A stretch of 64,000 bases of DNA from Actinomycetota bacterium (GCA_009886115.1 VFJJ01000018.1:1-64000); one strand, 5' to 3'. Shown: positions 30,581-47,089, counted from the first letter of the stretch. Notes: generated by a model not told the origin, from the sequence alone. Numbers and translations: made by a program.

Positions 30581-30754
30581 GGCGTCAGGGCGGTGCCGGC
30601 CGGACCCCGCGCTTGTGCGACGACACCATCGGATGGGCGGCCGGTCCCCGCCGGTGCTCGGGCGGGGTGGCTGGGTGAAGGCGGGTTCGCTACGGTCCGG
30701 CTGAGACGCCCGTCGGAGCGCGACACTCATCGGCCACCGACACCCGTCAGACCC

Positions 30755-30803
30755 GAGTTGCCGTCCGCCTGAGTTGCCCATCCGCCTGAGTTGCCCATCC
30801 GTC
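30755..30803. repeat. ~17-bp tandem repeat, about 3 copies
   Basis: GAGTTGCCGTCCGCCT GAGTTGCCCATCCGCCT GAGTTGCCCATCCGTC. Confidence 0.85.
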
Positions 30804-30820
30804 GAGGAGATCACGAGACC

Positions 30821-31717: not shown

Positions 31718-31763
31718 GGGCGGCGGCCGTATCGGAGCGACGTGGGGGAGGGCTCCCCGCACG

Positions 31764-31810
31764 GTTTCTTCGCGATTTCGCGCACCCCCGGTGAAAGATC
31801 GCGAAGAAAC
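31764..31810. repeat. Palindrome with perfect 13-bp arms upstream of the ade gene
   Basis: GTTTCTTCGCGAT ... CACC-CCC-GGTG ... ATCGCGAAGAAAC. Confidence 0.7.
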
Positions 31811-31833
31811 ACCGAAGGTTCTAGCCTCGTGCC

Positions 31834-33600
31834 ATGACCGAGCACATCGACCGGGCAACGCGGGGTCGGGCCGTGCGCGCTGCGCTGGGCCAGGAACCCT
31901 TCGATCTGATGCTGAGCGGCGGGACGGTCGTCGATGTCGGCGTCGGCGAGATGCGCTCGGCCGACGTGGGGATCGTCGGCCCGCTGATCGCCAGCGTCCA
32001 CGAAACCGGTTCCCGCACCGACAGCCGAAGCGTCTTCGACTGTCGTGGACGGTGGATCGCGCCGGGGTTCATCGACCTGCACGTGCACTTCGAGAGCTCG
32101 ATGCTCACCCCGCGGGCCTACGCGGAGGCCGTCGTCCCGCGCGGCACGACCACGGTCTTCGCCGACCCGCACGAGCTGGCGAACGTCGCCGGCGTGGCCG
32201 GGGTGCGGTACGCCGTCGACGCCAGCCGAGATCTGCCCGTCCGCTTCGTGATCCAGGCTCCGTCGTGTGTTCCGCCGCTGCCCGGGCTGGAGCTGTCGGG
32301 TTCCGACCTGTTCGCCGCCGAGATCGACGAGATGCTCTCGTGGCCCGAGGTCGGCGGCCTGGCCGAGGTCATGGACATGGGCGGCGTCCTCACCAGGGAC
32401 CTGAGGATGGTCGAGATCGTCGAGGCCGGCCACCGCAGCGGCAAGCTCGTGAGCGGCCATGCGGCCGGGCTCACCGGCCCGGCGTTGCAGGCCTACCTGG
32501 CGGCGGGGATCCTGTCCGATCACGAGGTGTTCGCCCACGTCGACGCCATGGAGAAGCTGCGCAACGGGATGACCGTCGAGCTGCGGGGGGCGTTCGACTT
32601 CGTGCTCCCGTCGCTTGTGGCCGAGATCGCCGCGCTTGCCGAGTTCCCGACGCACCTGGTGGCCGCGACCGACGATCTCTTCGCGCTCACCCTGCTCGAA
32701 CACGGTGGCATCGACGACCTGCTGCGCCGACTGGTCAGCCACGGGATGCCTCCCGTGCGAGCGTTGCGGATCGCCACCTACAACGGTGCGTACCGGCTGC
32801 AGCGCCCCGATCTCGGTCTCGTCGCCCCCGGACGCCGCGCCGACATCGTGGTGTTGTCGTCGCTCGACGACGTCGCGGTCGACGACGTGTTCTTCTCGGG
32901 CGCCCTCGTCGCCAGCCATGGCCGACTCGTGGTCGACCTGCCCGACCCTCCCGCCACTCCGCTGGCCGATTCGGTGAAGCTCTCGGCCATGGTGCCCGAC
33001 GACTTCGTGATGCGCCTCGACGTGCCCGACGGCCGTCACCGGGTTCGGGTCGTCGACGGCGTGGTGCTCACCGCGTGGGGGGAGGCCGAGGTCGAGGTGC
33101 GCAACGGTCGGGTCGAGCCGCCGGCCGGCCACCTCGTGCAGGTCGTCGTTCACCGCCACGGCCGGGTCGCGCCCACACCGGTCGCCGGGCTGCTGCATGG
33201 CTGGGGCGACTGGACCGGCGCGGTCGCCACCACCCTCAACCACGACACCCACAACCTCGGGGTCTTCGGACGAGACCCGCACGACATGGCCGTGGCGGCC
33301 AACGCGGTGATCGCCGCGGGGGGAGGTGTCGCAGTGGCGAGTGGTGGCGTGGTGCTGGCGCTGCTCGAGCTGCCGATCGCCGGTATCCTCTCGCCCCGTT
33401 CGGCAGCGGAGGTGGCCGGTCTCCAACGCCAGGTCTCGGACGCCGCGCTCTCGATCGGCCTGCCGGTGGGGCCGCTCACCCAGCCCCTCTTCTCGGTGAT
33501 GCTGATGAGCCTGGCCTGCCTGTCGGGTCCCCACTTCACCGACGTCGGGCTCGTCGACGGCACGACCGGGACCCGGGTGCTCGATCTCGTTATCGCCTGA
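31834..33600 (+). CDS. ade: Adenine deaminase (AdeC type)
   Basis: PGFIDLHVHFESSML, DPHELANV, LAEVMD, SGHA, SDHE, ATDD, HDTHNL. TAGCCT 6 nt before the ATG. Confidence 0.9.
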   Translation: MTEHIDRATRGRAVRAALGQEPFDLMLSGGTVVDVGVGEMRSADVGIVGPLIASVHETGSRTDSRSVFDCRGRWIAPGFIDLHVHFESSMLTPRAYAEAVVPRGTTTVFADPHELANVAGVAGVRYAVDASRDLPVRFVIQAPSCVPPLPGLELSGSDLFAAEIDEMLSWPEVGGLAEVMDMGGVLTRDLRMVEIVEAGHRSGKLVSGHAAGLTGPALQAYLAAGILSDHEVFAHVDAMEKLRNGMTVELRGAFDFVLPSLVAEIAALAEFPTHLVAATDDLFALTLLEHGGIDDLLRRLVSHGMPPVRALRIATYNGAYRLQRPDLGLVAPGRRADIVVLSSLDDVAVDDVFFSGALVASHGRLVVDLPDPPATPLADSVKLSAMVPDDFVMRLDVPDGRHRVRVVDGVVLTAWGEAEVEVRNGRVEPPAGHLVQVVVHRHGRVAPTPVAGLLHGWGDWTGAVATTLNHDTHNLGVFGRDPHDMAVAANAVIAAGGGVAVASGGVVLALLELPIAGILSPRSAAEVAGLQRQVSDAALSIGLPVGPLTQPLFSVMLMSLACLSGPHFTDVGLVDGTTGTRVLDLVIA

Positions 33601-33673
33601 CGGTCGGGGTCCGCGCAGGTGCCCTGAGCCCACCGGCAGCGCCGCCGAGCCCCGAGCCGAATAGCGTGTGACG

Positions 33674-35548
33674 ATGGACGAGGCGACGACCCCGACGTTC
33701 CCGACGTTCCCCACGACCGGCAGGGCGCTGGGCGCCGATCTCGTGCCGACGCCCGAGCAGATCATGCGTCTCCAGGCCGTCGCCCGCGGTGACGAGGTGG
33801 CCGATCTGGCGATCCGCGGCGGAACGGTGATGTCGGTGCACAGTCGCGAGCTCGTCGAGCGCGACGTGCTGATCGTGGGGCCGTACATCGCGGCGGTCAC
33901 CCCTCCCGGTCGGCTCCGCGCCGTCGTCGAGATCGACGCCGCCGGGCGATTCGTCACCCCCACCTTCGTCGACACGCACCTCCACATCGAGTACACGATG
34001 CTCACGCCCGGGGAGTTGGCCCGCCTCGTCGTGCCCCGCGGAACCACCACGGTCCTGGCCGACCCCAATTGCCTCGCCAACGTCTGCGGCGCCGCGGCGA
34101 TCGATGTCATGGGCCACACGACCACCCCCATGCGGATCTTCCAGCAGATCTCCCACAAGGTCCCCCGCGTTCCGGGACGTGAGCTGGGCGGAGCGACGGT
34201 CTCCGAGCAGGAGGTCCTCGACCGGTTGGTGCTCGCCACCACCGCCACCCTGGGCGAGTCGAACCCGTTCGACCTCGACCTCTCAGCGGCCCGCAAGGCC
34301 CACGTGACGCTGGCGGCCGGACGGCGTATCACCGGGCACACCGCCCGGCTCGCCGACGAGCCGTTGTGGTCGTACCTCGCCGGCGGCGTCGGCGACGATC
34401 ACAACGCGTTCAACACCACCGAGGTGCTCGATCGACTCCGTCTCGGCGTGATGATCACGGTGATGGCCGGCTCGATGAACGACAACGTGCCCCTCGTGTT
34501 CGCCGACGTCGACGCCGTCGCGGGCGGTTTCGACCACATGACCTTCTGCGCCGACGACCGTCACGTCGAGGACCTCCACGAGCTGGGCCACATCGATCAC
34601 CACGTTCGCAGCGCCATCGCCTGCGGGGTGCCCGTCGTCGAGGCCTACCGCATGGCCACGCTCAACGCGGCCCGTCACTACCGGCTCGACCACCTCCTCG
34701 GCTCGATCACGCCCAGCCGGCTCGCCGATCTCATGGTCCTCGACGATCTTGCTGCGGTCTCGCCGTCGCTCGTCGTCGTCGGGGGTGTCGTGGTCGCCGA
34801 GGACGGGCGGGCAGCCTTCGCCAACACCGACGCGCCCCTGCCCGCGTGGACACGCGACACCATGCGCCTGCACGCGGGCATCGGTGTCGAGACCTTCAGG
34901 GTGCCGGCGACCCCCGGGCCCGACGAGGTTGCCGTCGTCCGGGCGATGGAGATGTACGACGGTTACTTCAAGCGGGCCTTCGAGGCCGAGTTGCCCGTGG
35001 TCGACGGGAACGTGATCGCCGATCCGTCGATCGACGTCGCCAAGATCGCGGTGGTAGACCGCCATCACGCGACGTCGCACCGGGCGATGGGATTCGTTCA
35101 GGGTTTCGGTCTGCGCCGGGGCGCGCTCGGCATCACCTCGAATTGCGAGAACCAGAACCTGGTGGTGGTCGGTACGAGCGACGCCGATCTGGCGCTGGCG
35201 GCCAGCGCTCTGCGGGAGCTCGGGGGCGGCTACGTCGCCGTTGCTGACGGGCGGGTCCTGGCCTCGGTGCCGTTGCCGTACGGCGGGATCATGAGCGACC
35301 AGCCCTGGGAGGTGGTGCACGAGCAGTCGGTGGCGATCAACGCTGCCGCCCGGGAGCTGGGCTGCGACATGGCCAGCCCGTTCATGATCCTGGCGTTCGT
35401 CGGCCTCGCCGGCGTTCCCGACTACGGGCTCACCGAGCTGGGGCTGATCGACACGTTCACCCAGGAGATCATCCCCGTGCTGCTGTGCTGTCGATGCCCG
35501 CTGCACGTGCACCGAGCCCGGGTCCCGCCGCAGGGGGAGCCGGGGTGA
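33674..35548 (+). CDS. Adenine deaminase paralog with altered active-site motifs
   Basis: VDTHLHIEYTML, DPNCLANV, LGESNP, TGHTA, DDHNA, CADD. TAGCGT 6 nt before ATG 33674. Confidence 0.85.
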   Translation: MDEATTPTFPTFPTTGRALGADLVPTPEQIMRLQAVARGDEVADLAIRGGTVMSVHSRELVERDVLIVGPYIAAVTPPGRLRAVVEIDAAGRFVTPTFVDTHLHIEYTMLTPGELARLVVPRGTTTVLADPNCLANVCGAAAIDVMGHTTTPMRIFQQISHKVPRVPGRELGGATVSEQEVLDRLVLATTATLGESNPFDLDLSAARKAHVTLAAGRRITGHTARLADEPLWSYLAGGVGDDHNAFNTTEVLDRLRLGVMITVMAGSMNDNVPLVFADVDAVAGGFDHMTFCADDRHVEDLHELGHIDHHVRSAIACGVPVVEAYRMATLNAARHYRLDHLLGSITPSRLADLMVLDDLAAVSPSLVVVGGVVVAEDGRAAFANTDAPLPAWTRDTMRLHAGIGVETFRVPATPGPDEVAVVRAMEMYDGYFKRAFEAELPVVDGNVIADPSIDVAKIAVVDRHHATSHRAMGFVQGFGLRRGALGITSNCENQNLVVVGTSDADLALAASALRELGGGYVAVADGRVLASVPLPYGGIMSDQPWEVVHEQSVAINAAARELGCDMASPFMILAFVGLAGVPDYGLTELGLIDTFTQEIIPVLLCCRCPLHVHRARVPPQGEPG

Positions 35549-36789
35549 CCGGCTCGCCCCGCCCGCTGCTGGGCGCGGCGTTCCCGCTCCCGCGCCTCAC
35601 CGGGACCGAGGCCCGGGCCATCGCCGAGCTCGACGATGTGATCGAGGCTGTCATCGCCCCGCTGGCCGACGAGCACGACGCCGCCGGGCGCTACCCCACC
35701 CGGGCCGTGGCCGCGCTCAAGCGCAGCGGGATCCTGAAGATCTCGGTGCCTGCGGCCTTCGGTGGCCTGGGCGCCTCCCATGCCGCCAGCCTCGAGTGCC
35801 AGGTCCGGCTGGCGGCCGCCGACAGCTCGGTCGCCCAGATCTTCAAGGTCCACGACGAGCTGGTGCGGGAGATCTTCACGTTCTGCCCCGACGAGCTGAG
35901 GCCACGTCTGGCCCGGGCCGTGCTCGACGACGACGTCATCCTCGGGCTGGCAGTGGCCGAGGCCACCAGCACCGTCGCCGAGCCGCTGCGCACGACGGCC
36001 ATCGCCCAGCCTGACGGTGGCTACGTCATCGACGGCACCAAGATCTACACGACCGGCGCGGCCGAGGCCGACCTCGTCGCCGTCTGGGCACTGAACCCGG
36101 CCGAGCTCACCCCCGAGCAACCCTGGCGGGCGTTGCAGCTCAACCTCGTCCCGGCCGGTGCCGCGGGCATGACCGTCCACCGCGACTGGGACGCGCTCGG
36201 ACAACGAGCGACCGACTCCGGGACGATCACGTTCGCCGGCGTCCGAACCGACCCTCGCTGGAAGGCCTCCGAGCCCGGCCGCGCCCCGTTGCCCCACAGC
36301 GGCGCCCGGTTCGAGGCCGGGTTCGCCGCCTGCGCCGTCGGCATCGGGATCGGCGCCCTCCGAGCCGGTGTGGCGTTCGTGAACGAGCACAGCCGGCCCT
36401 GGCCGGCAGCCGGTGTGAGCAACGCGGCCGACGACCTGCTCGTCCAGCGCAAGGCCGGCCAACTCGTCGCCGATCTCGTGGCCGCGTACGCGCTGGTCGA
36501 GCGCTGCGGCGAGCTGCTCGACGCGTTCGAACGGGGAGAGCTCGGGCGGACCGCGCTGGCCGTGCCGATCTACGCGGCCCGCTCCGCTGGCGACCGTGCC
36601 GGGTTGGCCGCGGCGGCTGATGTCATGTCGCTGTTGGGGACCCGCTCGGCGCGTAGCACCCATCGCTTCGACCGGTGGTGGCGCAACGTCCGCACCTTGT
36701 CCCTGCACGATCCGGTGGAATGGAAGCATGCCGAGATCGGGCGTCACGTGCTGACGGGCTGGGACCCTCCACCGGGCATCTACACGTGA
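35545..36789 (+). CDS. ACAD-fold flavin monooxygenase (DszC/SfnB-like)
   Basis: ADSSVAQIFKVH, GTKIYTTGA, DWDALGQRATDSG, FDRWWRNVRTLSLHDP. GTGA overlap with the ade paralog. Confidence 0.85.
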   Translation: MTGSPRPLLGAAFPLPRLTGTEARAIAELDDVIEAVIAPLADEHDAAGRYPTRAVAALKRSGILKISVPAAFGGLGASHAASLECQVRLAAADSSVAQIFKVHDELVREIFTFCPDELRPRLARAVLDDDVILGLAVAEATSTVAEPLRTTAIAQPDGGYVIDGTKIYTTGAAEADLVAVWALNPAELTPEQPWRALQLNLVPAGAAGMTVHRDWDALGQRATDSGTITFAGVRTDPRWKASEPGRAPLPHSGARFEAGFAACAVGIGIGALRAGVAFVNEHSRPWPAAGVSNAADDLLVQRKAGQLVADLVAAYALVERCGELLDAFERGELGRTALAVPIYAARSAGDRAGLAAAADVMSLLGTRSARSTHRFDRWWRNVRTLSLHDPVEWKHAEIGRHVLTGWDPPPGIYT

Positions 36790-36827
36790 GCTCCCCGGCT
36801 CTGCCATCGATCCCGAAAGGTCGGCCC

Positions 36828-37838
36828 ATGACCACGCCATCGATCGACGCCGAGTTGATCCGGCGGATGCCCAAGGTGGAGCTGCACATCCACCTGGAGG
36901 GGTGCTTCACGCCGGCCCGGATCGCCGAGCTGGCCGAGCGGGCCGACGAGCCGCCACCCCGGCCGCTGGGCGAGCTCTGGGCTGTCGACAACCTCGCCGA
37001 CTTCCTCCTGTCGCTCGATTGGGTGTGCTCGCTCGTGCGCGACGCCGAGACCGCCGAGACGATCGCGCTCGACTTCGCCCGCTACGCCCACGATCAGGGG
37101 ATCGCCTACGCCGAGGTCATCGTCAACCCCACGCACTGGACGGGCCTGAGCACCGACACGCTGTTCGCGGCGTTGGCGTCGGGGTTCGACCGGGCGGCCC
37201 GCGGCGGGCTCGGCGATTTCCGGCTGCTGCCGTCGATCCTGCGCCAGCAGTCGGCCGACGACGCCGTCGCGCTCGTGCGATGGATGGGCGCCGCCGGCAT
37301 CGATCGCATCGTCGGCCTGTCGATCGACGGGAACGAGGCCGCAGCCGGTCGCACGGGGACGCGCTTCGCCGGCGCCTACGCCCTGGCCCGGAGCTTGGGA
37401 CTGGGTGCGACGGCCCACGCCGGTGAGTCGTCAGGTGCCGAAGGGGTCCGCGACGCCATCGAGCTGCTCGGGGTCAGCCGCATCGATCATGGCATCCGTT
37501 GCGTCGAGGACCCAGCCGTGCTCGACCTCGTCATCGAGCGCGGCATCACCCTCAACCTCTGCCTCACGTCGAACTGCACGCTGGTGTACGGCCACCTCGA
37601 CGCCCATCCCGTCGTCGAGCTGGCCCGGGCCGGCGTTTCCTTCACGATCAACACCGACGACCCGGAGACCCTCGGCGTCACCTTGTGCTCTGAGCTGGAG
37701 CTGGCTGGCGCCCATCTGGGTTGGACGACGGCCGATCTCGTCGCGGCCCAGCGCCGGGCCGTCCGGGCCGCGTTCTGCGACCCGACGACCCGGCTGAAGC
37801 TCACCGGCGCGCTCGACCGCTTCGCGCAGGGCGGCTGA
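36828..37838 (+). CDS. add: Adenosine/adenine deaminase (ADA family)
   Basis: PKVELHIHLEG, AHAGE, RIDHG, NTDDP. Confidence 0.9.
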   Translation: MTTPSIDAELIRRMPKVELHIHLEGCFTPARIAELAERADEPPPRPLGELWAVDNLADFLLSLDWVCSLVRDAETAETIALDFARYAHDQGIAYAEVIVNPTHWTGLSTDTLFAALASGFDRAARGGLGDFRLLPSILRQQSADDAVALVRWMGAAGIDRIVGLSIDGNEAAAGRTGTRFAGAYALARSLGLGATAHAGESSGAEGVRDAIELLGVSRIDHGIRCVEDPAVLDLVIERGITLNLCLTSNCTLVYGHLDAHPVVELARAGVSFTINTDDPETLGVTLCSELELAGAHLGWTTADLVAAQRRAVRAAFCDPTTRLKLTGALDRFAQGG

Positions 37839-37873
37839 TCGCTCGGGTACTCGGGCGCCGACAGCTCGGGCGG

Positions 37874-38812
37874 CTATCGGTCGGCCACGTAGTTGACGCC
37901 GAGCCCCCGGGGCATCCGCGCCCGACGGGCCCCGATGATCAAGATGGTGAGGGCCACGAGGAAGGGGATGGCATTGAGCGCCTCGGTCGGGACGTCTCCC
38001 GAGACGACGTTGCGCAGGTTCGACGAGAACGCCTCGAAGAAACCGAACACGAACGCTCCCACGGCGGCGCCCCACACGCTCCAGCTGGCCATGATGATGA
38101 CGATCAGGGCGATGAAGCCCCGGTTGGCCGTGAGGAACGGTTGGAACTGGCCCACCTGGCCCAGCATGAGCGCGCCCCCGCCGACGCCTCCGAGGAACCC
38201 CGACAGGAGGCAGGCGAGGCTCCGTACCCGGACGACAGGCACGCCCCGGGCCGCGGCTGCGTCGGGATCCTCACCCACCGCCCGCACCTGCAGGCCGAAC
38301 GTGGTCCGGGCCGAGCACCACCACGCGATGGGGACGAGCGCGAAGCCCATCCAGCTGATCCAGTTGTTCCCGAAGATGGCATCGCCGAGGAAGGGCACGT
38401 CCGAGAGCCCGGGGATGTCGATCTCGGAGAGGCGCGACACCCGACGGGCATCCTGGGGGGTGGGGGTGGTCTCCCGGAAGACGAACCCCGTGAGGCCGAT
38501 GCCGAGGGTCGTGAGCGCGAAGCCGACGACGACCTGGTTGGCGCTGAGGCGGACGCTCAGCGCCACCATGAGCAGCGCCATCAGCATGCCGGCGATGCCC
38601 CCTGCGAGCAGGCCGATGAGCGTCCCCGTCTCAACGGCCACATAGAGGCTGGTGAGCGAACCGACGATCATGTAGCCCTCGAGGCCGATGTTCAACACCC
38701 CGGCTCGCTGCGAGAAGGTCTCGCCGATCGATGCGTAGATGAGCGGCGTCGCCAGGCGAAGACCACCCGAGATCGAGGCGATCCAGAAGGTCTCGGTGAG
38801 CAGGCGGTCCAT
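37874..38812 (-). CDS. Nucleoside-type ABC permease 2
   Basis: QRAGVLNIGLEG, ANQVVVG, RAVGEDPDAAAARG, NRGFIAL. Confidence 0.9.
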   Translation of the reverse strand: MDRLLTETFWIASISGGLRLATPLIYASIGETFSQRAGVLNIGLEGYMIVGSLTSLYVAVETGTLIGLLAGGIAGMLMALLMVALSVRLSANQVVVGFALTTLGIGLTGFVFRETTPTPQDARRVSRLSEIDIPGLSDVPFLGDAIFGNNWISWMGFALVPIAWWCSARTTFGLQVRAVGEDPDAAAARGVPVVRVRSLACLLSGFLGGVGGGALMLGQVGQFQPFLTANRGFIALIVIIMASWSVWGAAVGAFVFGFFEAFSSNLRNVVSGDVPTEALNAIPFLVALTILIIGARRARMPRGLGVNYVADR

Positions 38813-38814
38813 GG

Positions 38815-39981
38815 TCAACGCCCCCGGGCCGAGCCGGCCGCGGGCGTTGAGCCGGAGGCCCGGCTCGACCGGTCGGGGACGAGACGGAACGATCGAGCGG
38901 CTCTCCGCAGCAATGATGCGATCTGCGGCGCGTAGCGCACCGCGAAGCCGAGGAGGATGAGCGCCTGGATCACGTCGCTTAGCGACGCCGGGATGCCCTC
39001 GCTCGACTGCATGGCCAGGCCGCCCGACTGGAGCGCCCCGAAGAGGAGGGATGCGGCGAGGATCCCGGCCGGTCGTGCTGCACCGAGGAACGCCACGACC
39101 AGACCGAAGAACCCGATCTCCGATGCGATCTCGAGATAGAGGCGCTGCAACAGGCCGGCGGCCTGGATCCAGCCGACGACGCCGGCCGCGGCGCCCGAGA
39201 TCAGCAGCGAGTTGAGCACGACCCGCCGGCCGGGGATCCCCAGGCTCTCGGCGAGCCGCGGGTTCTCGCCGTAGAGGTCGTACCGGAACCCGACCGTCGA
39301 ACGGATCCACCACCACAGGCCCAGCAGCACCGCGGGGGCGACGAGCACGCCGATGTGGAAGCGGGTGCCGTCGATCACGAGGCCGAGCACGCCGTTGTCG
39401 GGGTAGGCATCCGACTGCGGGGTGATCGCGGCTGGAGGCTTGAGCGGGCCGTTGAGCAGGTACTCGATCAGCAGCGCGGCGAACTCGGTGAACAACAGCG
39501 TCGAGAGGATCTCGTTGACCCCGAGGTAGGCGCGCAGCAACGCGGGCACGAGCGCCCAGGCCGCTCCGAAGAGAGCTCCGCCGATCGCCGCCGCCGGGAT
39601 CGCCAGGCCCGACGGAGCGCCGTCGAACAGCTTGGCTGTGAGGAGCGCGCCGATGGCCCCCACGATCACCTGGCCCTGGGCGCCGATGGTCACCATGCCG
39701 GCGCGCAGTGCCACGGCGGCTCCTGCGCCCACGATCACGAGCGGTGCCGACCGGGCCAACGTCTCGCCGATCGCGAACTTCGAGCCGAACGCCCCGTCGA
39801 GCATGGCGCCGTACGCGCTGAACGGGCTGTCGCCCGAGACGAGCAGGATCACGCCGCCGACGATCAGGGCTCCCAGCACGGCGAGGATGCTCGTGCTCGC
39901 GCCGATGGTGGCCCGCTCGAGGCCCGATGCCTCGAGCTCGACATCGTCGTGCGTCTCGGCGACGACCGGCTCGTCAGCCAT
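38815..39981 (-). CDS. Nucleoside-type ABC permease 1
   Basis: RAGMVTIGAQGQ, GVNEILSTLL, multiple TM segments. Confidence 0.9.
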   Translation of the reverse strand: MADEPVVAETHDDVELEASGLERATIGASTSILAVLGALIVGGVILLVSGDSPFSAYGAMLDGAFGSKFAIGETLARSAPLVIVGAGAAVALRAGMVTIGAQGQVIVGAIGALLTAKLFDGAPSGLAIPAAAIGGALFGAAWALVPALLRAYLGVNEILSTLLFTEFAALLIEYLLNGPLKPPAAITPQSDAYPDNGVLGLVIDGTRFHIGVLVAPAVLLGLWWWIRSTVGFRYDLYGENPRLAESLGIPGRRVVLNSLLISGAAAGVVGWIQAAGLLQRLYLEIASEIGFFGLVVAFLGAARPAGILAASLLFGALQSGGLAMQSSEGIPASLSDVIQALILLGFAVRYAPQIASLLRRAARSFRLVPDRSSRASGSTPAAGSARGR

Positions 39982-41584
39982 GATGGTCTGCCCTTGGGGC
40001 GCCGCCGGTCCCCGCGCCCGCGCCCCGGCCCGCGCCCGGTCGCGGTCGCGGTCGCGGTCGAGCCATGCCGGCCATGGCCGCGCCCAGACGGCCCGACGTC
40101 ATGTCCTCGATGGCGAACTCGTCGGTGACCCGTCCCCCGCTCAGCACCACGACCCGGTGGGCCAGCTCGCGAACCTCGTCGAGGTCGGCGCTGATCACCA
40201 CGACCGCCCCACCCCGCTCGGCAACGGCGAAGCACCGGTCGCGCATGGCCCGAGCGGCATGGGGGTCGAGCCCCTTGGTGGGGCCGGCAGCCACCAGCAC
40301 CGCAGGATCGCGCTCGAGCTCGCGTGCCGCCATCAGCTTCTGCTGGTTGCCTCCCGACAGCGCTCCGGCAATGGCGCTGGGCTCAGGAGGGCGCACCTCG
40401 AAGCGGCCGGCCAGCTCGCGGACGTGCGCTCCGACCGGGCCCGGCAACCGCACGCCCAGACGGGCGAAGCCCCGGTCGCCGATGCGCCGCGCGATGGCGT
40501 TGTCGGCGAGGGTGAACCCGTGGGCCAGACCGGTGGCGCGGTCTTCGTGGAGATGGGCCATCCCGGCTGCGATGGCCTTGCGACTCGACCCGGTCACGTC
40601 GACGCCGTCGACCACGACGTGTCCCCGGGTGGGCCGCCGCACGCCGGTGAGCACCTCGGCCAGAGCCTCCTGGCCGTTGCCCGCCACGCCGACGACACCG
40701 ACGATCTCGCCGCCGCCGACCGTGAAGCTCACCCCGTCGAGCCCGACACCGTGATCGAGGTGCGCTCCGAGGCCCTGGGCCGAGAGGCGCACCTCGCCGC
40801 GGACCGTCTGCGGGCGCTCGACCCGGAGCAGCGACAGGTCGCCGATCATGAGCTCGGCGATACGGGCCAGGTCGGCCTGACGCACGTCCTCGCCGGCGAG
40901 CACGACACGGCCCTGGCGCAGGATGGTGAGCCGGTCGGCCAGCTGGGCCAGCTCGGGCAGGCGATGGGAGATGTAGATGATCGGCGTGCCTTCGGCCCTC
41001 AGTCGTTGACACAGCCGGATGAGGGCGTCGGTCTCGACCGGGCCCAGCGCGGAGCTGGGCTCGTCGAGGATGAGCGCCCGTGCTCCCCAGGCGACGCCGA
41101 TGAGGATCTCCGCCTGCTGACGCACGGCCAGGGGCAGGTCGTCGACGATCGTCGCGGCCGGCACCGCCAGCCCGAGCTCATCGGACAGGCGCGTGACCTC
41201 GGCCCGGGCTGCCCTGGCGTTGAACAGGGCCGATGCGTTGGGCCGTCCGAGCTGCAGGTTCTCGGCGACGGTGAGCCCTCGCACCAACGAGAGCTGTTGG
41301 CGGATGTGCGCCACCCCGCGGGCCGCGCCTTCGCGTCGTGAGCCCGGTGCATACGGTTCGCCGAACAGCGCCATCTCGCCGCTGTCGGCGCGCAGCACGC
41401 CGGCGACGATCTTGGCCAGGGTCGACTTGCCGGCTCCGTTCTCGCCGACCAGGGCGTGGATCTCGCCGGCCCGCAACGTGAAGTCGACATCGGCCAGCGC
41501 CTGCACCGCGCCGAACCGGCGGGAGATCCCCCGGGCCTCGAGGACCGGGGGATCTCCCGTGATCGGAGGGACGCCGCTCGGCAT
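39974..41584 (-). CDS. Nucleoside/sugar ABC ATPase (double domain)
   Basis: GENGAGKST, LDEP, GVAGNGQ, LSGGNQQK, ISADLDEV. Confidence 0.92.
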   Translation of the reverse strand: MPSGVPPITGDPPVLEARGISRRFGAVQALADVDFTLRAGEIHALVGENGAGKSTLAKIVAGVLRADSGEMALFGEPYAPGSRREGAARGVAHIRQQLSLVRGLTVAENLQLGRPNASALFNARAARAEVTRLSDELGLAVPAATIVDDLPLAVRQQAEILIGVAWGARALILDEPSSALGPVETDALIRLCQRLRAEGTPIIYISHRLPELAQLADRLTILRQGRVVLAGEDVRQADLARIAELMIGDLSLLRVERPQTVRGEVRLSAQGLGAHLDHGVGLDGVSFTVGGGEIVGVVGVAGNGQEALAEVLTGVRRPTRGHVVVDGVDVTGSSRKAIAAGMAHLHEDRATGLAHGFTLADNAIARRIGDRGFARLGVRLPGPVGAHVRELAGRFEVRPPEPSAIAGALSGGNQQKLMAARELERDPAVLVAAGPTKGLDPHAARAMRDRCFAVAERGGAVVVISADLDEVRELAHRVVVLSGGRVTDEFAIEDMTSGRLGAAMAGMARPRPRPRPGAGRGAGAGTGGAPRADHHG

Positions 41585-42750
41585 CAGCCGGGCGTGGGGA
41601 ACGGGATCTCGAACGTGCCGTCCTGCACCGAGGCGATGAGGTCGTCGACGATGGCCTGGAGCTCGGCCGGGGTCTTGGCCAGCTCGACGGTCACGCCGGT
41701 GTTGATGGGAAGGACCGCGACCTGGTTGTTGAAGATGCCCGAGGGGTTGAAGGCGTCGTCGGGCTCCTCGCCGAATGTCCCGTCGCGGAGCTCGACGAAC
41801 CAGTTCAGGTAGAGGTCCTTCAGCACCATCTGCGTCGCCGAGACCAGCACCTCGGGTGCCGTGTCGAGCTGCGTGCCGAATCCGGTCGAGATCGGGATGC
41901 CGGCCGCCGACGCAGACTGGACGGCGCCGATGCAGATGCCGTCACCCGAGCAGTAGATGAAGTCGGCGCCCTGGTCGATGAGCGACTGGGTGACCTCGGC
42001 GGCCTTTTGCACGTTGATGAAGTCACCGGCGAAGCCCTCGAGGAACTCGACGTCGTCGCGCACCGACTGCACGCCCTCGCGAAACGCCTCGTGCCCATCC
42101 TTGACGAACTGGAACTCGGGACCGCCGACCACCCCGATCGTCTCCCCGATGAGCGCGTGGCCGGCCACGACGCCGTTGGGGTAGGCCATGTCCTGCAGGT
42201 TGTACAGCCAGTCCTCGACGTTGGGACCGGTCGTGGCTCCTTCGACGAGGACGCCGCCCGACATCGTGAAGTTCACGTCGGGGAACTCGGAGTACACCTG
42301 TTGGATGGGATCGACGTACTCGATGCCGTGGCCGATGACGAGGTCGTACCCCTGCGTCGCGAAATCGCGAATCGCGGGCAGCGAGTCGGTCGGGTCGACC
42401 AGCTCCTCGATGAACGTGCACTCGATCGCACCGTCCTCGGCGGCGGCATTCAGCAGGCCCTGGTAGCCGCCCTGGCTGAACGAGTTGTCGTTGCGGATAC
42501 CCGGCAACAAGAGCGCGACCCTGAGCACGTCCTTGGTCGCGGACTGACTCGTGTTGCTGCACTCGCCTTCACCACCACCATCACCTTCGGCGGGGGCGGT
42601 GGTGTCGGTCGCTCCCGCGGTGGTGCCGCTCTCCGGTGCCGCCGTGGTCTCGGCGGACGATCCCGAGTCGTCGTCATCGCCACATGCCGTGGCGAACACC
42701 GTCAACGCGGCGGTCGCCACGACGATCCACCATTGCGAACGCTTGCTCAT
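41584..42750 (-). CDS. BMP-family nucleoside-binding lipoprotein
   Basis: Lipobox ATACGDDDDS; NDNSFSQGGYQGL, GYDLVIGHG, LIDQGAD. Confidence 0.9.
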   Translation of the reverse strand: MSKRSQWWIVVATAALTVFATACGDDDDSGSSAETTAAPESGTTAGATDTTAPAEGDGGGEGECSNTSQSATKDVLRVALLLPGIRNDNSFSQGGYQGLLNAAAEDGAIECTFIEELVDPTDSLPAIRDFATQGYDLVIGHGIEYVDPIQQVYSEFPDVNFTMSGGVLVEGATTGPNVEDWLYNLQDMAYPNGVVAGHALIGETIGVVGGPEFQFVKDGHEAFREGVQSVRDDVEFLEGFAGDFINVQKAAEVTQSLIDQGADFIYCSGDGICIGAVQSASAAGIPISTGFGTQLDTAPEVLVSATQMVLKDLYLNWFVELRDGTFGEEPDDAFNPSGIFNNQVAVLPINTGVTVELAKTPAELQAIVDDLIASVQDGTFEIPFPTPG

Positions 42751-42795
42751 GTTCCCTCCCGGTGAGCACCGTCCCCATGCGGCGCCACGTGGGGA

Positions 42796-42851
42796 AAGCT
42801 ACCAAGCTCGCGCAGGTCACAACATTTCTCCGGTGTTACGGCCGTCGAAAC
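42796..42851 (-). promoter_or_regulatory. Probable GlnR box and -10 element of the nucleoside ABC operon
   Basis: Minus strand GTTTC-n7-GTAAC-n6-GAAAT-n3-GTGAC, then TAGCTT (42796-42801). Matches the GTNAC-n6-GAAAC pattern. Confidence 0.6.
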
Positions 42852-42894
42852 GACCAGCGCGCGAGCGTCGGGCGTGGATCGACCGGCAGCGTGT

Positions 42895-44277
42895 TCACCG
42901 GTCGCCGATGCTCTGACGCAGGAGACGGCGTGCCTCGCGAGCAACCGCTCGTTCGTCGACGGTGACGCAGCGACCGTCACGCACGACGACGCGGCCGTTC
43001 ACCACGACGAGATGGGCCCGGTCGGAGATCCCCGTCAAGACCAAGCCGGCCACGGGATCGTGCACGCCCACCCGGTCGACGGTCGTCATGTCCCAGCCGG
43101 CCAGGTCGGCACCGAAGCCCGGGGCCACCACACCGAGGTCGGTGCGGCCCAGACACCGGGCCGAGCCCCGGGTCGCCATCCGTAGCAGCTCGCGCGCCGA
43201 CAGCCAGCGCCGCGGATCGGCGGAGCTCATCCGGTGCGCCAACGCCGCGACCCGCAGGTCGCCGAGCACGTTCGAGCCGTCGTTGCTGGCCGAGCCGGTC
43301 GTGCCGAATCCCATCTTCACGCCGGCATCGAGCATCTCGCGCACCGGTGAGAGGCCCCAGCCCATCTTCAGGTCGGGGCCGATCAGGTGGGCGACGCCCA
43401 CACCCGCCGCCGCGAACTCGGGTATCTCCTCGGCCGGGGGATCGACGACGTGCGCCAGCCAGACCCGCTCGCTGTGCCAGCCATGGCGCAGCAGGATCCG
43501 CCAGGGTGTGGTGCCGTAGCGCTCGGCGCAGAACCGGGTGTCGACGACCTCGTAGAGGTGCGTGTGAAGCCCGACGCCCGGGTTCAGCGCGGCGAGGATC
43601 GCCGTCTCGGTGTAGAGCTCGAGACGATCGGCGTGCACACCGCACGGAGCGAGGTCGATGCGCACCATGGCGAGCGGCTCGGGGTCGTGGTAGCTCTCGA
43701 TGAGGGCCTGCGAGTGCTTGAGCACCTCGTCGATCGTCTGCACGACGACGTCGGGAGCGCTGCCGCCCCGGTCGCGGCCCAGTGTGATCGACCCCCGGCC
43801 GGCGTGGAGTCGGAGGCCCACCTCGGTCGCCGCCTCGATGGTCTCCTCGATGAACGGCAGGGTCCAACCACCCGGGAAGAAGTAGTGCTGGTCGGCGACG
43901 GTCGTGACGCCGGTGAGCACCGACTCGACCATGCCGGCGCGGGCCAGGGCGCCGACCGTCTCGGGCTCCATGGCGCCGTTGCGCCACATGTCCAGACAAC
44001 GGGTCGTGACGCCGCGGAGCCAGGGGAGGATCGTCGTGCGCTCGAGCTCGGGCAGGGCGCGCAGGCCGATCTGGTAGAGGTGGTTGTGGGCGTTGACCAA
44101 CCCGGGCAGCACGAGCAGGCCCTCGCCGTCGATGACCTCGGTGTCGGGCGGGCAGGGCAGATCGGACCCGACCGCGACGATGCGTCGACCCTCGACCAGC
44201 ACGTCGACATCGACGAGCTCGCGGTCGGCGTCGTCGCAGGTGACCAGATGGGAGATACGTCGGAGGAGCAGGCTCAC
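42895..44277 (-). CDS. Metal-dependent amidohydrolase, TrzN (triazine hydrolase)-like
   Basis: NAHNHLYQ, ADQHYFFPG, PCGV, HTHLYE, WLAH, PDLKMGWG, GFGTTGSASND, WLSARELLRMATRGSA, VDRVGVHDP. Confidence 0.85.
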   Translation of the reverse strand: MSLLLRRISHLVTCDDADRELVDVDVLVEGRRIVAVGSDLPCPPDTEVIDGEGLLVLPGLVNAHNHLYQIGLRALPELERTTILPWLRGVTTRCLDMWRNGAMEPETVGALARAGMVESVLTGVTTVADQHYFFPGGWTLPFIEETIEAATEVGLRLHAGRGSITLGRDRGGSAPDVVVQTIDEVLKHSQALIESYHDPEPLAMVRIDLAPCGVHADRLELYTETAILAALNPGVGLHTHLYEVVDTRFCAERYGTTPWRILLRHGWHSERVWLAHVVDPPAEEIPEFAAAGVGVAHLIGPDLKMGWGLSPVREMLDAGVKMGFGTTGSASNDGSNVLGDLRVAALAHRMSSADPRRWLSARELLRMATRGSARCLGRTDLGVVAPGFGADLAGWDMTTVDRVGVHDPVAGLVLTGISDRAHLVVVNGRVVVRDGRCVTVDERAVAREARRLLRQSIGDR

Positions 44278-44283
44278 GACACC

Positions 44284-44312
44284 AGGATGTTGAACCGGGA
44301 GGCCCGCGTCAA
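44284..44312 (-). promoter_or_regulatory. SigA-type leaderless promoter of the TrzN-like gene
   Basis: TTGACG-17 nt-CATCCT, ending 6 nt before the GTG at 44277. Confidence 0.6.
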
Positions 44313-44503
44313 CCGCCAGCGCGCGAGACCGCCTTCCGAGGGTCGTGCGCGGTGAGTCCGAGGCAGCCGCCGCCACGTGCGGGGACCGCGCGGTGACCGG
44401 GAGCCCGGTCGAGCGTGTCGCCGCCGTGTGCCGCCTTCCTGGTCCCCTGCCCGGCCGCTGCCCCCTGTGCCCCGGCCGGCCTCGTTGGTTTAGTGTCCCG
44501 CCG

Positions 44504-45628
44504 GTGGTGCGGGGACGCGAGCTGGGGATCGCCATCGGGCGAGGTCGGCCGGGGCCGCTCGACGCGATCACCGACGTGGCCGGCGTCCGAGTGGGCCACG
44601 CCACCATCGTCGAGGGCGACGACGTCCGAACCGGGGTCACGATCGTGGAGCCCCGGCCCGGATCGGCCTACGAGGAGCCGTGCTTTGCCGGTATCCACCG
44701 TCTCAACGGCAATGGGGAGCTGACCGGGGCCCACTGGATCGCCGAGTCGGGGCTGCTGGGCGGACCGGTGGCCATCACGAACACCCACAGCGTCGGCGCG
44801 GTCCACGAGGCCCTGGTGGCCCTGGAGCGCGAGCGCCGCCCCGACGTCGACGACTGGGCCCTGCCGGTCGTGGCCGAGACCTGGGATGGGTGGCTGAACG
44901 ACATCGACGGCTTCCACGTGAGGGCCGAGCACGTGCGCTCGGCCGTGGCCGGCGCGGCCGGGGGCCCGGTGGCCGAAGGTGCGCTCGGCGGGGGGACGGG
45001 CATGGTCTGTCACGGCTGCAAGGGCGGGATCGGGACCGCGTCGCGGGTGACCGACGACGGGTGGACCGTGGGCGCGCTCGTCCAGGCCAACTACGGCCAA
45101 CGAGAGCTGCTCCGGGTCGACGGTTACCCGGTGGGCCGGGTGCTCGACGACGACCGCCTCCCGCTCCCGCTCGACCCTCGTGACACTCCTCGCCCCGGAC
45201 GCGGTGGCGGGACGGGACCGGATGGCCGCGGCTCGATCATCGTGGTGCTGGCGACCGATGCTGCGCTGGTGCCCCACCAGTGCACGCGTCTCGCTCAGCG
45301 GGCGACGATCGGCCTGGCCCGAGCGGGGGGATGCGGCGACGACTCGAGCGGCGACCTGTTCCTCGCCTTCTCGACGGGCAACTCCGGGCTCCGGCCGGCG
45401 CCCCCCGAGCCGGGAGAGCGGGTCGAGCCGGTCACGATCGGCTTCCTGCCGAACGCGGCGTTGACCCCGCTGTTTCACGCCGCCGCCGAGGCGGTGGAGG
45501 AGGCGATCCTCAACGCGCTCCTCGCTGCTGTCACCACCACCGGGCGCGGCGGTCGCACGGCTTGGGCCCTGACCCCCGAGGCTCTCCTGGCGGCCTTGGC
45601 CGAGACCGGATGGCGCCCGTCGACATGA
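44504..45628 (+). CDS. P1/S58 family peptidase (DmpA-like)
   Basis: AITDVAGVRVGH, NGNGELTG, TNTHSVG, PVVAETWDG, G|SIIVV autocleavage site, SGDLFLAFST. Confidence 0.9.
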   Translation: MVRGRELGIAIGRGRPGPLDAITDVAGVRVGHATIVEGDDVRTGVTIVEPRPGSAYEEPCFAGIHRLNGNGELTGAHWIAESGLLGGPVAITNTHSVGAVHEALVALERERRPDVDDWALPVVAETWDGWLNDIDGFHVRAEHVRSAVAGAAGGPVAEGALGGGTGMVCHGCKGGIGTASRVTDDGWTVGALVQANYGQRELLRVDGYPVGRVLDDDRLPLPLDPRDTPRPGRGGGTGPDGRGSIIVVLATDAALVPHQCTRLAQRATIGLARAGGCGDDSSGDLFLAFSTGNSGLRPAPPEPGERVEPVTIGFLPNAALTPLFHAAAEAVEEAILNALLAAVTTTGRGGRTAWALTPEALLAALAETGWRPST

Positions 45629-45697
45629 CAGGTGATCGAGCCCGCTCCCGGGCGCCGTGCGATCCGACCGTCGGGTTGCGGTGGGCCCGCCGAGCGA

Positions 45698-47089
45698 TCA
45701 GAGCTCGAGCAGGGCCTGTTCGACGGCCTCGGTGAGCGCGGGGTGGATGTAGATCACGTCATGGGCGAGCTGGTCGACGGTCTGGCCGAACGTCATGGCC
45801 TGCACGAGCGGCTGGATCAGGGTGGCCGCCTGGGGGCCCATGATGTGGGCGCCGAGCAGGAGTCGGGTCTCGGCGTCGGCGATCAGCTTCACGAACGAGG
45901 TCGTATCGCGGAGCGCCCATCCGTAGGCGGTGTGCGAGTAGTCGCGCACCGCGATCGACAGCGGACGTCCCGTCTCGCGGGCGGCGCGCTCGGTGAGCCC
46001 GACGGCCGCCACCTGCGGGTCGGCGAACACGGCGTGCGGGGCGAGGGGGAAGGTTCCCGTGCGGAGGTCGTCGGGGTGCAGGAGGTTGTGGCGCAGGGCC
46101 CGTCCCTCGGCATTGGCCATGTGCTTGAGCTGGAGGTGGTTCGCCAGGTCGCCGAACGCGAACACGCCGTCGACCGAGGTGCGGAGGTACTCGTCGACGA
46201 GCACATGACCATGGACGTCGACGGCGATCCCGGCCGCGGCGGCGTCGAGCAGATCACTGTTGGGGATTCGCCCGGTCGCCACGAGCACCGTGTCGACGGT
46301 GAGCTCCGATGGGCCGACCGTCTCGGCCCCGGCCGATGGCCTCGATGTCGACGTGAGGTTGAGCATGATCCCTTCACCACGCTGGCGCATCCCCACCACG
46401 CGAGCGTTCGTGTGGATCTCGAATCGTCCTCGGGCGATCTCGGTGAAACGCCGGCTCACGTCGTGATCTTCGGCGGTGAGCAGCTCGGCGCCGCGCTGGA
46501 CGATCGAGACGTGCGAGCCGAGCGCCTGGAAGACGTGGCCCAGCTCGGCGGCGATGAACCCACCTCCGATGATGGCCAACCGGGCCGGGAGGGTTTCGAG
46601 GCGCATGATCGTGTCTGAGGTGTGGAACGGAACCTCGTCGAGCCCGGGGATGTCGGGGATCATCGGCCGGGCTCCGGCAGCCAGGACGATTCGGTCGCCG
46701 GTGATGCGCTGACCGTCGATCTCGAGCACCTTGGGAGCCACGAAACGGGCCGTACCCTCGTACACGACGGTACCCGTCCGGCGGCGGTACTCGATGGCGC
46801 TGGCGTGCGCGGGATCGATGGGGGCGAAGACCCGGTCCCGAATGGCTGGCCAGTCGACGGCGTCGAGGCTCGCAGTGATGTCGAAGCGGGCCGCGTGGCG
46901 GACGTGCTCGGCGATGTCGGCGGAGTGGACGAAGATCTTCGACGGGATGCAGCCTCGGTTCAGGCACGTGCCGCCGAAGCGGTCGCGCTCGACGATCGCG
47001 ATGCGCCATCCCTCGAATTCCGGTCCGGGGAGCATGTTGCCGCTGCCGGCCCCGACGATCACCAGGTCGTAGCGCTCCACTGTGGCCAC
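45698..47089 (-). CDS. mtr: Mycothione reductase
   Basis: GAGSGN, GGTCLNRGCIPSK, QLKHMANAE, YIHPALTEAVE. Confidence 0.85.
   Translation of the reverse strand: MATVERYDLVIVGAGSGNMLPGPEFEGWRIAIVERDRFGGTCLNRGCIPSKIFVHSADIAEHVRHAARFDITASLDAVDWPAIRDRVFAPIDPAHASAIEYRRRTGTVVYEGTARFVAPKVLEIDGQRITGDRIVLAAGARPMIPDIPGLDEVPFHTSDTIMRLETLPARLAIIGGGFIAAELGHVFQALGSHVSIVQRGAELLTAEDHDVSRRFTEIARGRFEIHTNARVVGMRQRGEGIMLNLTSTSRPSAGAETVGPSELTVDTVLVATGRIPNSDLLDAAAAGIAVDVHGHVLVDEYLRTSVDGVFAFGDLANHLQLKHMANAEGRALRHNLLHPDDLRTGTFPLAPHAVFADPQVAAVGLTERAARETGRPLSIAVRDYSHTAYGWALRDTTSFVKLIADAETRLLLGAHIMGPQAATLIQPLVQAMTFGQTVDQLAHDVIYIHPALTEAVEQALLEL

Follow-up and report, generated by a model that had tools for sequence, protein, structure and literature searches.

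The gene cluster described here occupies positions 31834..45628 of a 64,000-nucleotide stretch of DNA from an Actinomycetota bacterium (GCA_009886115.1 VFJJ01000018.1:1-64000; hereafter the window, on which all positions are counted), and is a candidate for a system that imports substituted purine bases and strips them of their substituents. A preliminary description of the sequence had listed four deaminase-like amidohydrolases, a DszC/SfnB-like monooxygenase, a BMP-type ATP-binding cassette (ABC) importer and a DmpA peptidase, arranged in two convergent arms. Genes were identified with Pfam and NCBIfam profiles and with sequence searches against PDB, and every one of these was found where it had been placed. 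The profile searches picked out ten real genes in the interval:

31834..33600, plus strand: ade1, a canonical-type adenine deaminase (cog1001; PF13382 Adenine_deam_C, 1.4e-40)
33668..35548, plus strand: ade2, a divergent Ade-family amidohydrolase and the signature gene of the module (PF13382 Adenine_deam_C, 4.8e-52)
about 35545..36789, plus strand: a flavin monooxygenase of the SfnB/DszC/MsuC type, with the acyl-CoA dehydrogenase (ACAD) fold (Pfam Acyl-CoA_dh N, M and 2 domains)
36828..37838, plus strand: an ADA-family (cog1816) deaminase-like gene (PF00962, 8.4e-63)
37874..38815, minus strand: ABC permease 2 of the BMP-type importer (PF02653 BPD_transp_2, 3.3e-35)
38815..39981, minus strand: ABC permease 1 (PF02653 BPD_transp_2, 1.7e-34)
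39974..41584, minus strand: a tandem-domain ABC ATPase (PF00005 at two stretches)
41584..42750, minus strand: a BMP/PnrA-family substrate-binding lipoprotein (PF02608, 4e-31)
42895..44277, minus strand: a TrzN-family amidohydrolase of the cog0402 lineage, first gene of the minus-strand arm (3LS9, E 1.4e-168)
44504..45628 (start approximate), plus strand: an S58/DmpA aminopeptidase (PF03576, 1.2e-113)

The two arms do converge, with 35 bp between their stop codons (37838 / 37874), and dmpA and the TrzN-like gene are divergently oriented. The TGA stop codon of ade2 (35546-35548) and the GTG start codon of the monooxygenase gene (35545) overlap in the sequence GTGA, and a terminator-like hairpin lies just 5' of ade1 (31742-31760). 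Because the region has a GC content of about 70%, most of the long open reading frames (ORFs) in a mechanical list are spurious, for instance an antisense frame of 1067 amino acids at 31138-34341. A scan for sigma-70-like promoters returned 0 sites in 30500-46000 and is uninformative at this GC content, and Rfam searches at gathering thresholds over the window and three further loci gave tRNAs only, with no purine, xanthine or 8-oxoguanine riboswitch. The cluster is flanked by an esterase gene, which is not conserved beside the other loci, by lipid and steroid-type genes and by a mycothione reductase gene.

The arrangement of these genes is not due to chance, and they form a conserved functional unit that recurs in numerous soil, marine and sponge-associated bacteria. 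Related loci were collected with two probes: the flavoprotein, searched against one genome per species (30 loci, checked by tblastn with the window proteins), and an alignment of Ade2 orthologues (80 loci). Two denominators are used, namely 73 loci with at least 1.5 kb of sequence downstream of ade2 and 57 well-flanked loci with at least 8 kb on both sides. The heuristic gene caller misses genes in high-GC loci (38 monooxygenase genes, against 58 by tblastn), and its counts of neighbouring families are lower bounds, given below as such. The monooxygenase gene lies directly 3' of ade2 in 58 of the 73 loci, and this pair was found in Actinomycetota, Alphaproteobacteria and Gammaproteobacteria inside differing operon layouts. 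Among the 57 well-flanked loci, the flavoprotein and the ADA-like gene are each present in 44, the BMP protein in 42, a TrzN-like gene (at 60% identity or more) in 18, all of them of type A below, and ade1 in 16. Metagenome-assembled genomes (MAGs) of Acidimicrobiia, including Candidatus Poriferisocius, carry the full set in the order ade1/ade2, flavoprotein, ADA-like, both permeases, ATPase, BMP and TrzN-like, and the trio of ade2, flavoprotein and ADA-like gene was also detected in Proteobacteria by tblastn. The loci fall into the following architectures:

Type A, 19 loci, Acidimicrobiia and relatives: the same nine genes in the order of the window, without dmpA
Type B, 17 loci (one partial), mostly Alphaproteobacteria (Rhizobium, Methylocapsa, Kumtagia, Flavimaribacter) and some Actinomycetota: ADA-like, small secreted protein, BMP, ATPase, ade2, flavoprotein, permease, permease, with a LysR gene upstream
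Type C, 16 loci, Gammaproteobacteria (Halieaceae, Cellvibrionales, Pseudomonadales) and one Acidimicrobiales MAG: ade2, flavoprotein and ADA-like, often followed by a 2-oxoglutarate (2OG) oxygenase and another cog0402 amidohydrolase; an NCS2 nucleobase permease gene is oriented divergently to ade2
Type D, 12 loci, Acidimicrobiales: ade2 and BMP, without the flavoprotein or ADA-like gene
Other, 7 loci, mixed: six retain ade2 and flavoprotein in other layouts, and one has ade2 alone

In type B loci, the ATPase gene of the BMP transporter is separated from the permease genes by ade2 and the monooxygenase gene, as in Rhizobium sp. HT1-10 and in Methylocapsa sp. S129. Cultured carriers of the module include these two as well as Mangrovimicrobium sediminis, Kumtagia ephedrae and Flavimaribacter sediminis. 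Both permeases are kept in types A and B, and two further loci without a flavoprotein (L085, L105) have a type B-like layout. Co-occurrence in other genomes had been set beforehand as a test of the proposal, and the genes do co-occur, both as the pair and, in the 19 type A loci, as nine genes. The set that had been put forward as one unit is nevertheless smaller than was thought. Its conserved core consists of Ade2, the monooxygenase, the ADA-like protein and an importer (BMP ABC or NCS2), the TrzN-like gene and Ade1 are additions limited to Acidimicrobiia-type loci, and the DmpA peptidase does not belong to it, since dmpA adjoins the cluster only on the contig of the closest relative (L001) and has no match in the 80 Ade2 loci.

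Several further genes accompany these loci. At least seven type B loci (for example L070:6851-7468 + and L063:4583-5185 +) encode a protein of about 200 amino acids with a signal-peptide-like N-terminus and conserved Cys residues but without a Pfam family, whose gene is flanked by those for the ADA-like and BMP proteins in the two loci of this type that were examined. Gammaproteobacterial loci also encode an Ade-family protein of a third type, which retains DHE and shares about 30% identity with Ade2 (L020:14600-17619, L023:2-2036, L067:17661-20733); it is partnered with a HupE/UreJ_2 membrane protein, and DUF1007, ABC-3 and ZnuA metal-uptake genes adjoin the operon in Rhizobium sp. HT1-10. 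The HupE/UreJ_2 and metal-uptake neighbours hint at a dedicated metal supply.

Ade2 represents a distinct, sharply conserved subfamily with the fold of adenine deaminase. In PDB it is matched best by 3NQB (1.9e-60), and an AlphaFold2 model (predicted local distance difference test score 89.9) superimposes on that structure with template-modelling (TM) scores of 0.85-0.90 at 30% identity. The fold, including the Adenine_deam_C domain, and the binuclear ligands (HxH, the bridging Glu, two His and Asp) are retained in Ade2, whereas the His-Glu pair and the third-metal ligands present in Ade1 are absent. The DHE of Ade1 and Atu4426 is replaced by DDHN, so that a metal-ligand Glu becomes Asn, and the third-metal site is altered from DPHE to DPNC and from SHDSHN (in Atu4426) to SNCENQN. 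In Atu4426, the third metal is reportedly bound by His122, Glu123, His477 and Asp478. The C-terminus of Ade2 carries in addition a CCRCPxHxH tail. N246, C135, C493, C607, C608, C610, H613 and H615 are invariant in 30 orthologues (52-76% identity), and CCRCPxH is retained in the type D proteins. The presence of Cys at both replaced third-metal positions, together with the CCRCPxH tail, may point to a new Cys-based metal or Fe-S site. Ade1, in contrast, keeps HxH, DHE, DPHE and NHDTHN, and thus has the canonical residues. Both proteins miss the TIGR01178 equivalog cut-off of 472.5 bits (Ade1 362.4, Ade2 352.7).

The closest functional comparison is provided by Bh0637 and Bsu06560 (YerA) of cog1001 subgroup 2, which like Ade2 are Ade-family binuclear amidohydrolases, and which are substituted-adenine specialists: they are N6-methyladenine deaminases that also take 6-chloro-, 6-methoxy- and 6-methylmercaptopurine (PMC8643624, PMC13296781). 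A fragment of YerA, 9JQL, matches the C-terminal domain of Ade2 (3.9e-11). The two groups differ in that Bsu06560 keeps the His231/Glu232 pair as metal ligands (PMC8643624), whereas Ade2 has His-Asn, the Cys-containing replacement of the third-metal site and the CCRCPxH tail; moreover, no flavin monooxygenase partner is reported for Bh0637 or Bsu06560, whereas the monooxygenase gene overlaps that of Ade2. In the Bsu06560 model, Glu232 is a metal ligand and, with docked substrate, hydrogen-bonds the protonated N1 (PMC8643624). The equivalent residue is Asn in Ade2, a replacement that would suit a leaving group without need of protonation, or a ring nitrogen unable to accept a proton. Since the active site of Ade2 is both remodelled and invariant, and since the ade2 stop codon overlaps the monooxygenase start codon, plain adenine salvage is unlikely, and the earlier suggestion that the cluster serves more than such salvage gains support from the invariance across phyla.

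The monooxygenase has SfnB as its best NCBIfam and Atlas match, and falls short of the cut-offs of both the SfnB model (TIGR04022; 244.3 vs 430.9 bits) and the DszC model (186.9 vs 850 bits). Its PDB matches are DszC (7e-47), TdsC (about 1e-46) and MsuC (1e-40), so that every one of the closest characterised proteins is a sulfur oxygenase; the N-oxygenases DnmZ and KijD3 match far more weakly (about 1e-9). In alignments to 3X0X and 6U76, the protein keeps the FDRxWRNxRTxSLHDP motif, including a His aligned to His391 of DszC, and has Thr at the position of Ser163, two positions that we take to be functionally important; His388 of DszC is replaced by Leu. The enzyme therefore shares the ACAD fold, the C-terminal motif and Ser/Thr at the Ser163 position with DszC, TdsC and MsuC of the SfnB family, but misses the family cut-offs and is partnered with purine hydrolases instead of Dsz, Ssu or Msu genes. 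It is presumably of the two-component type with a reductase encoded elsewhere: no flavin reductase was found among the cluster ORFs scanned, and the genome has four PF01613 genes at other places. In a quick, unrooted tree, the Acetobacteraceae monooxygenases form a clade on a long branch.

The ADA-like protein passes the TIGR01430 cut-off (225.6 vs 216.55 bits) and misses all of the narrower NF0068xx adenosine deaminase models. Its translation and PDB alignments show all the catalytic residues (HIHLEG, HAGES, IDHG, NTDDP). Among its best 120 homologues listed, orthologues are at least 48% identical across phyla, and all the named ones are called adenosine deaminase. A different activity has been described within this family for Patl2390 of cog1816 group 3, a cytokinin deaminase that hydrolyses N6-isopentenyl-, N6-methyl- and N6,N6-dimethyladenine but neither adenine nor adenosine (PMC13296781). 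Patl2390 is not named among the best 120 homologues of the module's protein, and the two are likened by description, as fellow members of the ADA family. By this precedent, the ADA-like enzyme of the cluster may act on N6-substituted bases.

The fourth hydrolase had been labelled TrzN-like, and this is borne out. Its match to TrzN (3LS9) extends over residues 3-447 aligned to 2-447 (phmmer E 1.4e-168, 564.8 bits), at an identity of roughly two-thirds as estimated by eye, and the TrzN residues NAHNH, HTHLYE, AHV and GFGTTGSASNDG are matched in the alignment. The protein keeps HxH, His238, Glu241 of HxxE, His274 and Thr325, the Thr that stands in place of the Asp metal ligand and that is described as unique to TrzN within the superfamily (PMC4356373). 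8-oxoguanine deaminase is the best NCBIfam model (402 bits, under its cut-off of 532), but TrzN is a much closer relative. TrzN removes -SCH3, -OCH3 and halide leaving groups from triazines and pyrimidines (PMC4356373). TrzN of Arthrobacter aurescens / Nocardioides is plasmid-borne in atrazine degraders (PMC4356373), whereas the window gene is chromosomal and heads a BMP importer operon of purine type. At E <= 1e-50, the TrzN-like family numbers 2282 proteins among 8000 candidates scored, with generic names only, and the best 120 homologues of the window gene are at least 55% identical. A locus search from this gene, with peptide patterns that were too specific, gave 1 close relative among 10 loci; because both this and a sampling of genomes across the phylum (below) gave little, the reverse association, from TrzN-like gene to module, is drawn from the 18 type A loci. 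A parallel is offered by NdmH, the N2,N2-dimethylguanine hydrolases identified as progenitors of AtzB (Drexler et al. 2026, PMC13054789): there, an atrazine-pathway amidohydrolase derives from an enzyme stripping alkylamino groups from a modified purine, and the same logic is proposed here for the relatives of TrzN. NdmH, however, belongs to a guanine deaminase-like branch of the amidohydrolases that is not that of the TrzN-like gene, and that paper makes no mention of TrzN and leaves the genomic context of NdmH genes to future work (PMC13054789).

The importer is complete on the minus strand (37874-42750), with a BMP lipoprotein, a tandem ATPase and two BPD_transp_2 permeases. The translation of the BMP protein shows a signal peptide and Cys (a lipobox-like N-terminus), and its PDB matches are 4P98 (8e-43) and the atrazine-binding protein 6PI5 (1.5e-8); the ATPase reaches 351 bits against the NF047930 cut-off of 670. 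The system thus resembles the PnrA/BMP nucleoside and purine importers and AtzT in having a complete lipoprotein/ATPase/permease set, with 6PI5 as a detectable relative. The closest solved BMP relative, 4P98, is named just 'extracellular solute-binding protein', and a literature search for that code turned up no relevant paper, so that ligand specificity is not readable from it.

The genomic context nonetheless constrains the type of substrate. NCS2 permeases (family present in at least 13 loci; upstream of ade2 on the opposite strand in the four annotated, L019, L020, L023 and L067) replace the ABC system in type C loci, and neither a nucleosidase nor a phosphorylase turned up in the window ORFs scanned; for both reasons the substrate is expected to be a free base. 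From the presence of guaA and a phosphoribosyltransferase gene beside the module in L020, of a phosphoribosyltransferase gene in L067, and of a xanthine-dehydrogenase-type gene after the TrzN-like gene in at least 8 type A loci, we infer that the module feeds purine metabolism. With regard to the substituent, the clues diverge. Sulfur is indicated by the sulfur-oxygenase relatives of the monooxygenase, by the -SCH3 chemistry of TrzN and by the acceptance of 6-methylmercaptopurine by N6-methyladenine deaminases, and in a Steroidobacteraceae MAG an SsuD-like alkanesulfonate monooxygenase gene (L015:13108-14181, minus strand; 385 bits vs a cut-off of 510) adjoins a rearranged module of BMP, ATPase, flavoprotein and permease. 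The context in other lineages suggests methyl or alkyl groups at least as much. The gammaproteobacterial version includes a 2OG/Fe(II) oxygenase family in at least 9 loci (for example L019:9158-10129 + and L023:12226-13131 +), which is closest to the fungal thymine dioxygenase 5C3P (1.2e-44; thymine-7-hydroxylase-like) and lies, where mapped, between the ADA-like and cog0402 genes; L019 has a VanA-type Rieske oxygenase in addition, and a P450 gene lies upstream in 11 Poriferisocius-type loci. In type D, ade2 and BMP are flanked by a glutamine-synthetase-like gene (at least 12 loci) and a C26 gamma-glutamyl hydrolase gene (at least 9), and an aldehyde dehydrogenase gene is found near ade2 and BMP in at least 14 loci, including the type A locus L040. 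By analogy, the type D flanking set follows the pattern of gamma-glutamyl alkylamine pathways (Puu/Ipu-like). Type D loci (L046-L056, L095, L108; for example L047:9104-16873) also contain a second Ade gene, with NT5C, DeoC and UPRTase genes nearby.

We propose that the cluster serves to import substituted purine bases and to demodify them, which would yield hypoxanthine or xanthine, and give this reading a probability of about one half. In the sequence of steps that we infer, the free base would be imported by the BMP-type ABC system, or by the NCS2 permease in Gammaproteobacteria. The SfnB/DszC-type monooxygenase, with reduced flavin mononucleotide (FMNH2) supplied by a reductase encoded elsewhere, would then oxidise the purine substituent, either converting a thioether to the sulfoxide or sulfone or hydroxylating a methyl or alkyl group, and the oxidised group would be a good leaving group. 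Ade2 and the ADA-family enzyme would displace the exocyclic groups hydrolytically; in the window's lineage, the TrzN-like enzyme would displace a C2-type leaving group and Ade1 would handle plain adenine. The resulting hypoxanthine or xanthine would enter xanthine dehydrogenase catabolism or salvage, with a gain of nitrogen, and the released fragment would be a small amine or sulfur compound. Purines that carry methylthio, N-alkyl or methyl groups would all fit these observations. For the window's version, 2-methylthio-N6-alkyladenines are tentatively the likeliest single named class, at well below even odds, because no other candidate would bring the TrzN-like, SfnB-like and N6-type deaminases into use at once, whereas for the core shared across phyla the likelihood of methylated or alkylated purines is no lower. 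The 2-methylthio/N6-alkyl adenines and cytokinins named in the preliminary description thus remain candidate substrates, while 2-aminoadenine (2,6-diaminopurine), also named there, is rejected as the main substrate because it needs no oxygenase.

A more far-reaching version of this proposal, which we regard as doubtful though worth stating, is that the TrzN family, including the ancestors of the herbicide enzyme, natively removes a C2 leaving group, most attractively methylthio, from modified purines, that the module is the first catabolic route for 2-methylthio-N6-alkyladenines, and that Ade2 is a new metalloenzyme subtype with a Cys-based extra metal site. In such a route, the 2-methylthio-N6-alkyladenines would derive from tRNA breakdown or be present as 2-methylthio-cytokinins, the DszC-like flavoenzyme would oxygenate the sulfur, Ade2 or the TrzN-like enzyme would displace the C2 group, and the cytokinin-deaminase-like ADA would displace the N6 group to give xanthine.

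Several observations weigh against the import-and-demodification proposal or parts of it. The DszC pocket positions 92 and 96 are not conserved in the monooxygenase (His92 is Gln and Tyr96 is Val), and we know of no N-demethylase among the ACAD-fold monooxygenases. In Phytohabitans, Rugosimonospora and one MAG, in which Ade2 was not found, monooxygenases of 64-65% identity occur by themselves, and in the quick tree these nest among the ade2-linked ones; the monooxygenase is therefore not strictly dependent on Ade2. In the 12 Acidimicrobiales loci of type D, Ade2 and BMP are present but both the monooxygenase and the ADA-like gene are missing. The TrzN-like gene is restricted to type A (18 of 57 loci), and at E <= 1e-100 it occurs in 1 of 301 phylum-sampled genomes, which is the window's own. 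A sulfur-assimilation-type gene is linked in one locus only (the SsuD-like gene of L015), and methylthio-purines are, to our knowledge, rare compounds. Finally, the loci are phylogenetically clustered and not independent, many being from relatives of Ca. Poriferisocius.

Some of these observations would be accounted for if the hydrolases alone demodified N-/S-alkyl purines and the monooxygenase acted on the freed fragment (an alkylamine, or methanesulfinate as for MsuC), recovering nitrogen or sulfur or detoxifying the fragment. We consider this alternative possible but unlikely. It is consistent with the 12 Acidimicrobiales loci, in which a Puu/Ipu-like alkylamine set takes the place of the monooxygenase and ADA-like genes, with the stand-alone monooxygenases, with the close structural relationship to MsuC (1e-40) and with the SsuD-like neighbour in L015. 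The replacement in type D, however, is confined to a single lineage and thus amounts to roughly one event, and the tight order of ade2 and the monooxygenase gene, even within the transporter operon, suggests shared chemistry without proving it. The N-oxygenases DnmZ and KijD3 are far more distant, and we know of no amine-oxidising member of the DszC/MsuC clade.

Oxidative catabolism of the ring, in which the monooxygenase would hydroxylate purine C8 or C2 and Ade2, with a urease/dihydroorotase-like centre, would open the ring, is improbable. In its favour, the loss of the extra Glu leaves Ade2 with the usual ligand set (HxH, bridging carboxylate, His, His and Asp), the hydroxylation of aromatic rings, for instance of indoles and phenols, is within the chemistry of ACAD-fold monooxygenases, and as many as five amidohydrolases and two oxygenases are encoded in gammaproteobacterial loci. 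In its minimal form, the type B operon nevertheless encodes only three enzymes, none of them for ring-opened products, and the fold and C-terminal domain of Ade2 are still those of an adenine deaminase (TM 0.85-0.90). A molybdenum-free substitute for xanthine dehydrogenase would also be unneeded, given the xanthine-dehydrogenase-type gene in at least 8 type A loci and the 15 molybdenum-hydroxylase large-subunit genes of the genome, and on these grounds the idea of such a replacement was down-weighted. These MoCoBD_1 genes, in a genome of 5.4 Mb, are an unusually large set.

Ordinary salvage of adenine, adenosine or guanine by redundant paralogues, with the flavoprotein and TrzN-like genes as unrelated neighbours, is a shade less probable again. 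The named database entries are all adenine or adenosine deaminases or generic amidohydrolases, the ADA-like protein passes the TIGR01430 cut-off, and the paralogues in the genome total 3 for Ade and 5 for ADA. Chance neighbourhood, however, is at odds with a pair that stays together in 58 of 73 loci, in three major lineages of bacteria, and whose genes overlap in the window. Redundancy is likewise at odds with the invariant active-site changes of Ade2 and with the position of both Ade proteins under the TIGR01178 cut-off, and a second plain adenine deaminase would be superfluous beside the canonical Ade1. Least probable is a non-purine substrate, some other N-heterocycle taken up by the BMP/NCS2 carriers; pterins or lumazines, products of flavin breakdown, B6 vitamers, pyrimidines and natural compounds resembling triazines would be examples. 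In favour of this, the best NCBIfam transporter models are 'putative B6 ABC transporter' families (all far under their cut-offs), cog0402 relatives include pterin, isoxanthopterin and isocytosine deaminases (with the isocytosine deaminase Vcz, 7WW2, among the matches), the gammaproteobacterial 2OG oxygenase resembles thymine dioxygenase, a pyrimidine enzyme, and the substrates given for TrzN are triazines and pyrimidines (PMC4356373). Against it, the cluster combines three enzyme families whose characterised members act on adenine-type rings, and purine genes are linked to it (guaA and phosphoribosyltransferase in L020, phosphoribosyltransferase in L067, and the xanthine-dehydrogenase-type gene in type A).

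No published account of this gene set was found in a full-text literature search, most subscription journals and supplements being outside its reach, which agrees with the preliminary description, whose author knew of no such pathway. Nor did the search reveal an Ade2-type subgroup described as such, a report of SfnB-like monooxygenases paired with it, or a native function assigned to TrzN homologues. Already known are single base-demodifying enzymes (Bh0637/Bsu06560, Patl2390, NdmH) and BMP purine importers. Ade2, in contrast, is probably a new enzyme subtype, and defines an uncharacterised subgroup of the adenine deaminase fold. When RNA and DNA are turned over, their modified bases form a universal and poorly traced pool of fixed nitrogen, for which only isolated enzymes are known; a transporter-linked pathway that includes an oxygenase was not found in the search, and the proposed module would fill this gap in carriers as different as sponge symbionts, marine Gammaproteobacteria, rhizobia and relatives of methanotrophs. 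With regard to the origin of TrzN, a close relative with the 'unique' Thr325 in a purine-uptake operon provides candidate substrates to consider, along with source organisms that are cultured or proteins that could be expressed, and the tracing of AtzB in 2026 to a modified-purine hydrolase (PMC13054789) is a parallel.

Two further features of the genome were observed. A second deaminase island (L121) contains two cog0402 amidohydrolase genes and two tandem ADA-family genes, along with ABC ATPase and permease genes resembling those of the window's importer. Elsewhere in the window, an ORF of 887 amino acids (21591-24254, plus strand) encodes both a Ser/Thr protein kinase domain and a domain of the FGE-sulfatase (formylglycine-generating enzyme-like) type.

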